This document shows positions 3,205 through 59,434 of a stretch of 64,000 nucleotides of DNA, one piece after another (position 1 is the stretch's first letter; every line of letters starts with the position of its first letter). The position numbers and the translations under genes were made by a program. The DNA is taken from NCBI GenBank assembly GCA_900757655.1, contig CAAEOT010000026.1, positions 20,476 to 84,475 of the forward strand, given 5' to 3'. Source of the DNA: an uncultured Oscillospiraceae bacterium (GTDB lineage Bacteria; Bacillota; Clostridia; Oscillospirales; Oscillospiraceae). The notes beneath the pieces were generated by a model, which ran no database searches, had not been told where the DNA came from, and worked only from the letters and a program-made list of their open reading frames with translations.

Positions 3205-3257
3205 ACAGAGCCGCGGGGGAGCTCGAGGGGGTAAGGCCCGCCTCGAATGAAATCTGG
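3205..3257 (+). repeat. Copy A of a recurrent ~45-nt GC-rich stem-loop element (ACAGAGCCGCGGGGGAGCTCGAGGGGGTAAGGCCCGCCTCG-AATGAAATCT)
   Basis: Near-identical to the copies at 49041, 49134 and 51616. Stem CGAGGGGG/CCCGCCTCG with compensatory changes between copies. Confidence 0.6.
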
Positions 3258-3265
3258 ATTTGAAG

Positions 3266-3340
3266 TCTGCCCCCAAAGCCCACATCGGGCTTTGGGGGCA
3301 GACTGAAAAAACCGCTCTGCATTTTGCAGAGCGGTTTTTT
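3266..3340. terminator. 17-bp perfect hairpin followed by a bidirectional rho-independent terminator between convergent mrp and the DUF2804 gene
   Basis: GTCTGCCCCCAAAGCCC-ACATC-GGGCTTTGGGGGCAGAC, then AAAAAACCGCTCTGCATTTTGCAGAGCGGTTTTTT. Confidence 0.7.
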
Positions 3341-48935: not shown

Positions 48936-49040
48936 TCCCCTTGAGGGGAAGGTGCCGAGCTGTGTTCGGCGGATGAGGTGGAAAGGTTACGTTTTCCCCG
49001 GCGCCTTCGGCAGTGCGGTGCATTCCATAAGGTATCTGCG

Positions 49041-49074
49041 CAGCAGGGGAGCACGAGGGGGCAAGGCCCTCTCG
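49041..49074 (+). repeat. Copy B of the recurrent GC-rich stem-loop element
   Basis: GCAGCAGGGGAGCACGAGGGGGCAAGGCCCTCTCG. Confidence 0.6.
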
Positions 49075-49133
49075 TAAGAAATCGAGCTGTTTTTTGGCAG
49101 CGGTACACCCAGCCGCAAAATATTCCGTCCATA

Positions 49134-49178
49134 GAGCAGCAGGGGAGCACGAGGGGGCAAGGTCCGCCTCGTAATGGA
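49134..49178 (+). repeat. Copy C of the recurrent GC-rich stem-loop element (followed by a 13-bp perfect hairpin, a second hairpin and a terminator)
   Basis: GAGCAGCAGGGGAGCACGAGGGGGCAAGGTCCGCCTCG-TAATGGATTC. Confidence 0.6.
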
Positions 49179-49258
49179 TTCGGCTATCTTTTTGCCTTTC
49201 AGACAAAAAGATAGCCCCTTGCTCCAACATCGGAACAAGGGGCTATCCTGCCGTGTTC

Positions 49259-49295
49259 GGTTCCATCACCAGAACCTCCTTTTGTTTTCTTTTCC
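49259..49295 (+). terminator. Plus-strand intrinsic terminator inside the non-coding island
   Basis: GGTTC-CATCACCA-GAACC followed by TCCTTTTGTTTTCTTTTCC. Confidence 0.5.
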
Positions 49296-49519
49296 TGCCG
49301 TGTGCAGAGGTTTCGCGCTGCACGCGGACTCCGACCGCCGGGAAGGAACATGCGTTTGCAAGATTCCGCACCACTGCGTGCCGTCTCCGGAATGACAGAA
49401 CCCTGTCTGCTTCCGGACGATTCAGTACATCGGACTCACCTCCATCGATTGCGCTGAACCTGTATTCTAAAGGCGCTGCCCCTCGTGAGGGGCTGCTGCT
49501 CTTCTCTGGTTCTGGCTAC

Positions 49520-49548
49520 AGTATAGCAGTGCGTCTTCTTTTTGTCAA
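49520..49548 (-). promoter_or_regulatory. Consensus sigma-70 promoter on the minus strand (TTGACA-17-TATACT) firing leftward into the non-coding island
   Basis: Plus-strand TGTCAA at 49543-49548 and AGTATA at 49520-49525, with exactly 17 nt between them. Confidence 0.5.
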
Positions 49549-49717
49549 TGATTTAATTAACAAAAATTGAATGAAATGTTCAGTAAAAACGCCGAATTTT
49601 TCACTGCCTCGTGCCAACGCCCCTGCATGCGGGGCGCTGGCAAATCCTCCGCGCGGCGCGCAAAAGGAAAACCGCCGTGCGTGTCCGTCGGCGCACAGCG
49701 GCAGCAGCTTCGGTTCA

Positions 49718-51544: not shown

Positions 51545-51615
51545 ATCAGACACACGTCAGAGCCGCCCGCCGGGCGGCTCTGTGTCTATCGCAAAGTGCG
51601 GACGCACCATGTTGA

Positions 51616-51667
51616 CAGAGCAGCGGGGGAGCTCGAGGGGGCGAAGCGCCCGCCTCGAATGAGATTC
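51616..51667 (+). repeat. Copy D of the recurrent GC-rich stem-loop element (followed by hairpins at 51672-51705 and 51710-51732 and a terminator-like hairpin at 51735-51761)
   Basis: ACAGAGCAGCGGGGGAGCTCGAGGGGGCGAAGCGCCCGCCTCG-AATGAGATTC. The flanking sequence GAGCCGCCCG occurs at both 51561 and 51726. Confidence 0.6.
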
Positions 51668-51784
51668 TATTCGTCAGGCATATTTGCTGTGCAAAATGCC
51701 TGACGGTGACGGCTTGCTCTCTGAGCAAGCCGGGAGCCGCCCGAACAGGACGGCTCTTTTTCAACTTTCCATGGAGGGGCAGAT

Positions 51785-53708: not shown

Positions 53709-53817
53709 GCGCGCGGGCCGAAGCAGCGCAAAAAGTGTGCGGTTCTGATGCAGTGATCCCCCCCCACCTGGAATGAGATTTTCTGTTATATTTGCAAGAT
53801 CTTCACCACTTAGACGC

Positions 53818-59105: not shown

Positions 59106-59181
59106 GGGAGCATAGCTCAGCCGGGAGAGCACTTGCCTTACAAGCAAGGGGTCACAGGTTCGAGCCCTGTTGTTCCCACCA
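59106..59181 (+). tRNA. tRNA-Val (anticodon TAC)
   Basis: GGGAGCA acceptor, anticodon stem CTTGC / loop CTTACAA / GCAAG, T-arm GGTTCGAGCCC, 3' CCA encoded. Confidence 0.85.
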
Positions 59182-59198
59182 GTTTTTCAATTACATAC

Positions 59199-59274
59199 GC
59201 CTCTGTAGCTCAGTTGGTAGAGCAGGGGACTGAAAATCCCCGTGTCGTTGGTTCGATTCCGACCGGAGGCACCA
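59199..59274 (+). tRNA. tRNA-Phe (anticodon GAA)
   Basis: GCCTCTGTAGCTCAGTTGGTAGAGC, anticodon loop CTGAAAA, T-arm GGTTCGATTCC, CCA encoded. Confidence 0.85.
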
Positions 59275-59278
59275 TTTT

Positions 59279-59354
59279 GCGGGCATAGCTCATTTGGCAG
59301 AGCGCCACCTTGCCAAGGTGGAGGTAGCGAGTTCGAATCTCGTTGCCCGCTCCA
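59279..59354 (+). tRNA. tRNA-Gly (anticodon GCC)
   Basis: GCGGGCATAGCTCATTTGGCAGAGC, anticodon stem CCACC / loop TTGCCAA / GGTGG, T-arm AGTTCGAATCT, CCA encoded. Confidence 0.85.
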
Positions 59355-59360
59355 TTTTTT

Positions 59361-59434
59361 GGCGCCATAGCCAAGTGGTAAGGCATGGGACTGCAAATCC
59401 TTGACCCCCGGTTCAAATCCGGGTGGCGCCTCCA
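59361..59434 (+). tRNA. tRNA-Cys (anticodon GCA)
   Basis: GGCGCCATAGCCAAGTGGTAAGGC, anticodon loop CTGCAAA, T-arm GGTTCAAATCC, CCA encoded. Confidence 0.8.

Follow-up and report, generated by a model that had tools for sequence, protein, structure and literature searches.

A recurrent stem-loop in gut Oscillospiraceae as the probable core of a MITE family that targets terminator hairpins

Why does one GC-rich stem-loop recur four times on the same strand, behind unrelated genes, in 64 kb of an uncultured Oscillospiraceae genome? The stretch of DNA analysed here, 64,000 nucleotides long with a G+C content of 63.7% and called the window throughout, comes from an organism that is very common in human-gut assemblies; its parvulin-type protein is encoded with identical sequence on 939 contigs. 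An earlier note, made from the sequence alone, had considered modular small RNAs, 3'-UTR elements and a MITE-like palindromic unit. With a probability of roughly 85%, we favour the last of these in a more specific form, namely that the core motif is the best-preserved part of a non-coding MITE of ~200–225 bp which is moved by an IS1182-type transposase. Loci of other genomes are referred to by L numbers.

The repeated core in the window

The motif is 45–52 nt long and consists of GGGGAGCWCGAGGGGG and, behind it, a complementary arm. GGGGAGCWCGAGGGGG occurs four times on the plus strand (starts at 3216, 49046, 49142 and 51626); shuffled sequences contained 0.2 matches on average, and none of 100 shuffles reached four. 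When a covariance model derived from 36 copies of the core in other genomes was run on the window with filters off, it returned exactly four hits of 47–63 bits, the next best scoring 11 bits, and a profile of the full-length element found the same four copies only. The four plus-strand copies of the earlier note are thus confirmed; they are termed A to D in Table 1. Sequences resembling the tail GAATGAGATT, which had been seen as recurring near 53771 and 56903, have no core alongside and are chance matches. Elsewhere in the window, a cluster of four tRNA genes occupies the plus strand at 59106–59431.

Table 1. Positions of the four copies and of adjoining features in the window
Feature	Position	Strand	Basis
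Copy A, core	3206..3257	+	covariance-model hit, 62.8 bits, E 1e-12; fold
Copy A, 18-bp perfect hairpin AGTCTGCCCCCAAAGCCC/GGGCTTTGGGGGCAGACT	3264..3304	+	fold, coordinates
Bidirectional intrinsic terminator of the convergent pair, AAAAAACCGCTCTGC-ATTTT-GCAGAGCGGTTTTTT	3306..3340	.	sequence, fold
Copy B, core	49036..49086	+	covariance-model hit, 47.1 bits; strain alignment
GCTGTTTTTTGGCAGC after copy B	49086..49101	+	sequence
Copy C, core	49132..49183	+	covariance-model hit, 57.2 bits; relatives aligned
Copy D, left copy of duplicated target terminator, AGAGCCGCCCGCCGGGCGGCTCT	51559..51581	+	sequence; empty-site comparison
Copy D, element proper, ~152 bp	51582..51733	+	covariance model, profile, alignment, fold
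Copy D, internal hairpin GCATATTTGC/GCAAAATGC	51672-51705	+	matches AGCATTTTG..CAAAATGCT hairpin of full-length copies
Copy D, shortened terminal hairpin CGGCTTGCTC/GAGCAAGCCG	51710-51732	+	fold, alignment to full-length copies
Copy D, right copy of duplicated terminator, GAGCCGCCCGAACAGGACGGCTC and T run	51734..51761	+	sequence, fold

All four copies are old, partly decayed relics of a MITE. The element-end sequence TGTCRAAAA is absent throughout the window, and outside a core of ~60 nt the four copies align poorly with full-length elements. With ends unrecognisable and flanks so diverged, their membership in the family rests mainly on the core and on the hairpin duplication at D. Because they have no recognisable terminal inverted repeats, we file them as relics and not as intact MITEs, and the same lack of recognisable TGTCRAAAA ends means that they are probably immobile. 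An IS1182-type transposase was present neither in the window nor in the same-species loci fetched. When the window was inspected for target duplications, a diverged pair of terminators was seen at D and none at A, B or C.

Copy D follows the parvulin-type gene and is flanked by the two diverged terminator copies (51559–51581 and 51734–51756), with 152 bp between them. The flanking word GAGCCGCCCG reported earlier does occur twice, but at 51560 and 51734 and not at 51561 and 51726. The right-hand hairpin is the working terminator of the parvulin-type gene. In L146, a locus of a related species (parvulin 88% identical), the stop codon is followed by a single terminator, GAGCCGCCCGCTTCGGACGGCTCTTTTT, and then by the next gene, where the window has hairpin, copy D and hairpin. 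The suggested footprint resembling a target duplication is thereby borne out, and on alignment the L146 site appears to be the empty site of copy D; the same arrangement could have arisen by secondary precise loss through recombination between the duplicated hairpins. In L150 (parvulin 92% identical) the left hairpin and ~22 nt of the D element remain. Copy D itself has a degenerate 5' end (GTGTCTATCGCAAAG) and a core at 51616–51669 that scored 62.2 bits with the covariance model, the profile hit extending over 51607–51694. Its ends are only degenerate counterparts of the full-length termini; a resemblance to full-length copies persists in the internal and the shortened terminal hairpins. GCGAAGC forms the core loop of D. 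Over ~85 nt, window and L147 share 100% identity in the equivalent of D (L147:3897–4014), whereas identity of the adjacent protein is only 83%, and for this reason the L147 contig may be chimeric or D may have been exchanged recently. A short duplicated GGATAAATC.GACAC precedes the L147 copy.

Copies B and C are not independent since they share a 96-bp tandem duplication, in which B arose from the C unit. Orthologous loci differ for B as they do for D, copy B being absent in strain L136; this polymorphism reflects tandem duplication and not transposition. The core of B has one stem defect (CCC-TCTCG), and the sequence behind it appears, by eye, to resemble the element 3' end (TTTTTTGACAGCCTG). 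Copy C is an ancient insertion. Both the window species and L147 (parvulin 83% identical; covariance-model hit of 40.8 bits) retain an intact core at this site, whereas that of L146 and L150 has decayed. Two hairpins 3' of C (49182–49242) also occur in relatives with a decayed core; they may belong either to the element or to a neighbouring conserved stretch. That stretch (49185–49700) is noncoding, lies between lspA-type and parvulin-type genes and is near-identical in relatives whose flanking proteins are only 83–92% identical. The terminator at 49182–49242 forms its minus-strand end, it has no Rfam hit, and it may be a structured RNA or a long leader.

Copy A, with the layout ACAGAGCCGCG-GGGGAGC-stem-loop-AAUGAAAUC, is located downstream of a Mrp/ParA-type gene, between convergent genes. 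Its 18-bp hairpin may be a diverged version of the 3'-terminal inverted-repeat hairpin of the element (canonical form CAGGCTGTCGGAAAAGTCC..GGACTTTTTCGACAGCCTG), with which it agrees at 12 of 19 positions in a comparison made by eye only, and copy A as a whole looks like a short form similar to L008. The adjoining bidirectional terminator is presumed to be the target hairpin; no second copy of it survives upstream of A. An empty site for A was not found, as synteny is broken in the relatives, and those with a Mrp protein 84–90% identical have a different downstream region and no core.

Strong hairpins follow A, C and D, as had been described for every copy, but B is followed only by GCTGTTTTTTGGCAGC. 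The notion that a variable hairpin and a terminator accompany the core as one module had to be given up: what stands behind the cores is a mixture of internal or terminal hairpins of the element and duplicated target terminator.

Full-length elements, their target hairpins and their partner

In other genomes the core is embedded in a longer conserved unit. This holds for at least 36 loci of Oscillospiraceae and Ruminococcaceae (genomes and MAGs), among them members of the genera Pseudoflavonifractor, Intestinimonas, Lawsonibacter, Limivicinus, Pelethomonas, Oscillibacter and Bengtsoniella. The underlying scan covered one genome per species and yielded a mixture of matches; since it was keyed on the core pattern, the breadth of the family and the invariance of its core among the matches listed are in part a matter of ascertainment. 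A second, independent sample came from metagenomes, which were scanned with a part of the element outside the core. It comprises at least 120 loci, including 89 distinct copies of 220–221 bp, and 83% of these 89 have the exact core. Elements at the loci of other genomes measure 117–232 bp.

Among the Oscillospiraceae of animal and human guts, the family has a wide distribution and occurs in multiple copies. Besides the four copies in 64 kb described above, there are two within 8 kb in L117, several MAGs had two to three matching contigs, and assembly ERZ1643247 contains at least 17 hits in contigs of similar coverage, which we infer to belong to one genome. None of 40 copies lies inside a called ORF; in a larger set, crude gene calls placed 6 of 117 copies in ORFs that are probably spurious. 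BLAST searches with full-length elements returned no match to plasmids. The only phage match (MT838946.1:1798–1847; 50 nt, 98% to the core region) is to an unannotated 4.7-kb 'Bacteriophage sp.' record from human faeces.

The genome scan also returned Proteobacterial matches sharing GGGGAGCNCGAGGGGG..CCCCTCG (L011–L013, L019, L021, L022, L025, L035, L037, L051, L066, L073, L078 and L086; L002, L065, L109 and L119; L074, L085, L087 and L095; L014, L044, L059 and L110). We set these aside as probably unrelated repeat families in which the G-rich word is a coincidence. The Rhodobacterales matches form a unit of a conserved TTCTTCATCTGGCCAAAAATACCTCG and a hairpin, which is not a gene start, those of Pseudomonadales form 45-nt tandem arrays, and further units occur in Acetobacteraceae and Burkholderiaceae.

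Read from its 5' end, the element consists of the inverted repeat CAGnnTGTCRAAAAAC, a variable stretch of 25–40 nt, GGGGAGC with the core stem-loop and its bulged purine, a junction that is closed by a long-range helix and contains two hairpins and often a small GC(GNA)GC hairpin, and a perfect terminal hairpin that contributes the second inverted repeat as its outer arm (..TTTTTYGACARSCTG). Terminal inverted repeats are present in L015, L023, L040, L043, L047, L088, L104, L108 and L120 and in the metagenome consensus. L108 may serve as an example: a 29-bp palindrome, AGGCGGCTGCCTTCAAAGGCAGCCGCCTG, occurs twice in direct orientation, and the 208 bp in between start with AGACTGTCAAAAAAC and end with GGGCTTTTTTGACAAGCTG, which are imperfect terminal inverted repeats. 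Both inverted repeats of L108 (5283–5298 and 5478–5494) and of the consensus carry an outward-facing, −35-like TTGACA/TCGACA; these hexamers could form hybrid promoters with flanking DNA, the duplicated terminator lying directly beyond. At L097:6200–6474, in an Oscillospiraceae MAG from sheep omasum, the last codons of a gene and the core form a direct duplication of ~174 bp, and between the duplicated copies lies one core-plus-junction domain without inverted-repeat ends.

Exact direct repeats of 28–42 bp abut both ends of the element in nine loci (L008, L015, L040, L043, L070, L088, L104, L108 and L120), and in all nine the repeats are whole hairpins. Among the 30 metagenome sites at which strict end patterns located both ends, 18 have exact repeats of 15–34 bp (median 27.5), and strong hairpins abut both ends in 15 of these 18. 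According to crude, GC3-based gene calls, the sites of the loci listed are intergenic between convergent genes in 47 cases, between tandem genes in 35 and between divergent genes in 3; insertion is strongly biased towards gene 3' ends. In one MITE copy (L081:2480–2740) the loop of the core hairpin contains another inserted sequence, flanked by GCCGCAGGC, so the core hairpin can itself be a target.

A scan of viral contigs with the element 3' end revealed two complete insertion sequences (ISs) of ~1.5 kb (L133 and L135), each with one ORF (473 or 486 amino acids) and with the ends CAGCCTGTC(G/A)AAAAAGTCC... and ...TTCTTYGACARGCTG. Each lies between duplicates of an entire hairpin, which measures 40 bp in one case and 22 bp in the other. 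The ORF products match the Pfam models DUF772, DDE_Tnp_1 and DDE_Tnp_1_6 and the NCBIfam model NF033551, 'IS1182 family transposase', with 399.1 and 386.5 bits (cutoff 270); a plasmid locus 94% identical to the IS ORF in a tblastn search is likewise annotated as 'IS1182 family transposase'. The 3' hairpin end of the MITE corresponds to the left end of the IS and the MITE 5' end to the right one. No similarity was found between the interiors of MITE and IS, the termini alone being common to both. The L159 contig has one hairpin that is bordered both by a full-length, undisrupted transposase gene of the IS1182 type and by a MITE copy. Among all loci fetched, transposases of IS1182 type were confined to L133, L135 and L159. 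A second MITE family of 173 bp (L124, L127 and L134, all viral contigs) has the same terminal inverted repeats, an unrelated interior and no core, and one type of transposase thus seems to serve several non-autonomous families.

Based on the shared ends, the duplications of whole hairpins, the IS1182-family transposases and the neighbouring pair in L159, we regard the element as a MITE of a terminator-targeting IS1182-type IS, which vindicates the MITE-like unit of the earlier note. In the mechanism that we propose, the non-coding element would be moved in trans by the DDE transposase of the ~1.5 kb IS1182-family IS. For IS and MITE alike, the insertion point is the foot of a DNA palindrome, in most cases an intrinsic terminator, and both come to lie between direct duplicates of the entire hairpin. 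Given this duplication, we presume that the palindrome is flanked by staggered cuts and that the gaps are then repaired.

GC-rich hairpins at gene 3' ends and a structured interior of ~200 nt would also suit a REP/REPIN palindrome moved by an IS200-like RAYT, or one end of an IS200/IS605 or IS110 element that includes a guide or bridge RNA. REPs are units of 20–40 nt that are moved by RAYTs, often form inverted pairs and are not known to have inverted-repeat ends or target duplications, and IS200/IS605 and IS110 elements are not known to make long target duplications. The present copies are single same-strand units and not inverted doublets, the terminal inverted repeats of full-length copies are identical to those of a DDE IS1182-type IS and are accompanied by long target duplications, the only transposase found with these ends is of the DDE IS1182 type, and HEARO and other Rfam models are unmatched. 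We therefore hold an origin of this kind to be very improbable. The inverted repeats, the duplications and the DDE partner also led us to drop ωRNA/HEARO, bridge RNA, group II intron fragments, CRISPR-like arrays and promoter readings of GTCAAAAAAC. We found no description of the MITE family in the open-access text of the literature searched, and it seems to be undescribed. The element as such is of an ordinary kind.

The interior fold and the RNA question

Compensatory changes in the core had been put forward as a sign of selection on structure. Within the window they are weak, amounting to wobble pairs and one inserted pair, but covariation across the family is strong, and selection on structure is supported. 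In a per-subfamily alignment of 14 type-i copies, 95.5% of the cells are paired and 19 pairs show double changes; none of 500 shuffles reached this result, and slid controls gave 39–45%. Between subfamilies the long-range helix changes from AAAUGCC/GGCAUUU to ACCCGCC/GGCGGGU, and the closing pair of the core stem occurs as U-A, G-C, A-U and C-G across the family. Misaligned hairpins in alignment A2, which mixed the subfamilies, left RNAalifold with no more than the core and the long-range helix, and the analysis was therefore redone per subfamily. In alignment A3 (columns 130–142; for example L120, L091, L060 and L117) the GC(GNA)GC hairpin lies between the two junction hairpins; most copies have tandem G.A/A.G mismatches there, and others have Watson-Crick pairs instead.

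A fold so well conserved raises the question of whether it is a functional RNA, be it a 3'-UTR element for stability or processing or a family of sRNAs, that travels with the MITE or that the host has kept since the ends decayed. Several observations are in keeping with this idea. Compensatory changes span subfamilies, window copies without recognisable ends still have an intact core, and the GNRA-like and GNA loops together with the conserved bulged purine could suit recognition by a protein. MITE transcripts commonly fold stably and some yield sRNAs (PMC10969869). Moreover, each of the four window copies points the same way as the gene upstream of it; the earlier note had remarked on their common orientation. 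This last pattern represents three independent insertions only and is not significant, and in the larger sample orientation relative to genes is unbiased, with 21 sense and 14 antisense copies in tandem-gene contexts of the loci listed. Under a strand-symmetric fold, no strand asymmetry was detected, since departures of the G.U type (222) and of the A.C type (202) are about equal. An apparent excess of G.U was an artefact of the predictor and disappeared when the consensus fold was computed without G.U pairs. Rare variants in the core (1.42 per column) are no less frequent than elsewhere in the element, ends included. At the gathering threshold, an Rfam search of the window and of 16 loci with full-length copies gave tRNAs only, and even at E ≤ 10 nothing credible emerged for the window or for the full-length copies. 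A conserved internal promoter was not seen in the element.

Without a bias in orientation, an asymmetry of G.U over A.C or extra protection of the core, a role as RNA is unsupported, and the small-RNA and 3'-UTR readings of the earlier note are not upheld. Constraint at the level of the host is argued against by the orthologous C copy, which has decayed in two of four related species. Taken together, we consider a functional RNA unlikely. The same holds, with similar reserve, for the wider proposal that the MITE interior is a functional module, either a protein-binding RNA or a single-stranded DNA structure, which is carried to terminators across Oscillospiraceae genomes and kept by host or element once the ends have decayed. 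If true, it would explain why the core is perfect in window copies without ends. Two points speak against the MITE reading as such: a purely selfish MITE does not obviously need a conserved multi-helix interior, and the core appears intact where the ends are unrecognisable.

Still less support comes from the data for a cis-regulatory leader, that is, a riboswitch or attenuator that acts on the downstream gene via the terminator that follows. Copy D would be suitably placed, since a terminator follows it and a small ORF and a ThiF-family gene lie downstream. However, the genes on either side are convergent at copy A and at most copies elsewhere, orientation is random, and the neighbouring genes are unrelated across sites. 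Furthermore, L146 has the same downstream genes without the element, and the terminator behind D belongs, as a duplicate, to the upstream gene. These observations contradict the explanation, which we hold to be extremely improbable.

Returning to the MITE moved by an IS1182-type transposase, we conclude that selection on the fold operates on the element as it propagates. Probably the fold either works as a DNA structure or helps to join the two ends for a hairpin-seeking transposase; our best guess is that it serves propagation and not the host as an RNA. Templated correction within quasi-palindromes may be a neutral contributor to its conservation.

Implications and relation to known systems

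Seen as above, a conspicuous repeat of a very common human-gut Oscillospiraceae species is transposon debris, and recognising it as such prevents its annotation as an sRNA or riboswitch. After insertions of this type, gene 3' ends have terminators in tandem and long direct repeats. Effects on termination, on mRNA 3' ends and on local deletion or duplication are possible, the 96-bp polymorphism at B/C being an example of the latter. An IS1182-type IS and a MITE that duplicate whole terminator hairpins also constitute a clean natural data set on structure-directed target choice by a DDE transposase.

The REP, BIME and REPIN sequences resemble the present family as GC-rich hairpins at gene 3' ends, often near terminators. 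They differ in that neither transposition by a RAYT nor inverted pairing nor the lack of ends and duplications applies to the family described here.

Within the IS1182 family, direct repeats of 0–60 bp are recorded in ISfinder. The partner IS shares the transposase model with this family, which includes IS1272 and ISEfa7, and resembles IS1272 in having inverted-repeat or terminator hairpins as targets. IS1272 of staphylococci targets terminator hairpins; part of the hairpin is reportedly deleted or replaced, and no duplication is left (PMC4923244, PMC5678879). By contrast, the IS and MITE studied here duplicate the hairpin as a whole, and the window holds non-coding derivatives only. A comparable outcome is described for IS1630 of Mycoplasma fermentans, an IS30-family element that duplicates inverted repeats of 19–26 bp according to the passage of PMC2853133 that cites Calcutt 1999; the corresponding range in the present family is 15–42 bp. 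As transposase family (IS30 versus IS1182), host phylum and ends differ, the likeness is one of mechanism and not of membership.

The bacterial MITEs Correia/NEMIS, RUP, BOX, SPRITE, ERIC, bcr1 and QMITE are small, non-coding, multi-copy and intergenic, and have inverted repeats, target duplications, a stable predicted fold and an IS partner that acts in trans (PMC10969869). The present family is like them in size, copy number, ends, duplications, fold and partner. Whereas those MITEs are mostly AT-rich and make duplications of 2–9 bp, however, the Oscillospiraceae elements are GC-rich and duplicate an entire palindrome, and they are set apart by an interior that combines a covarying multi-helix junction with a nearly invariant G-rich hairpin.
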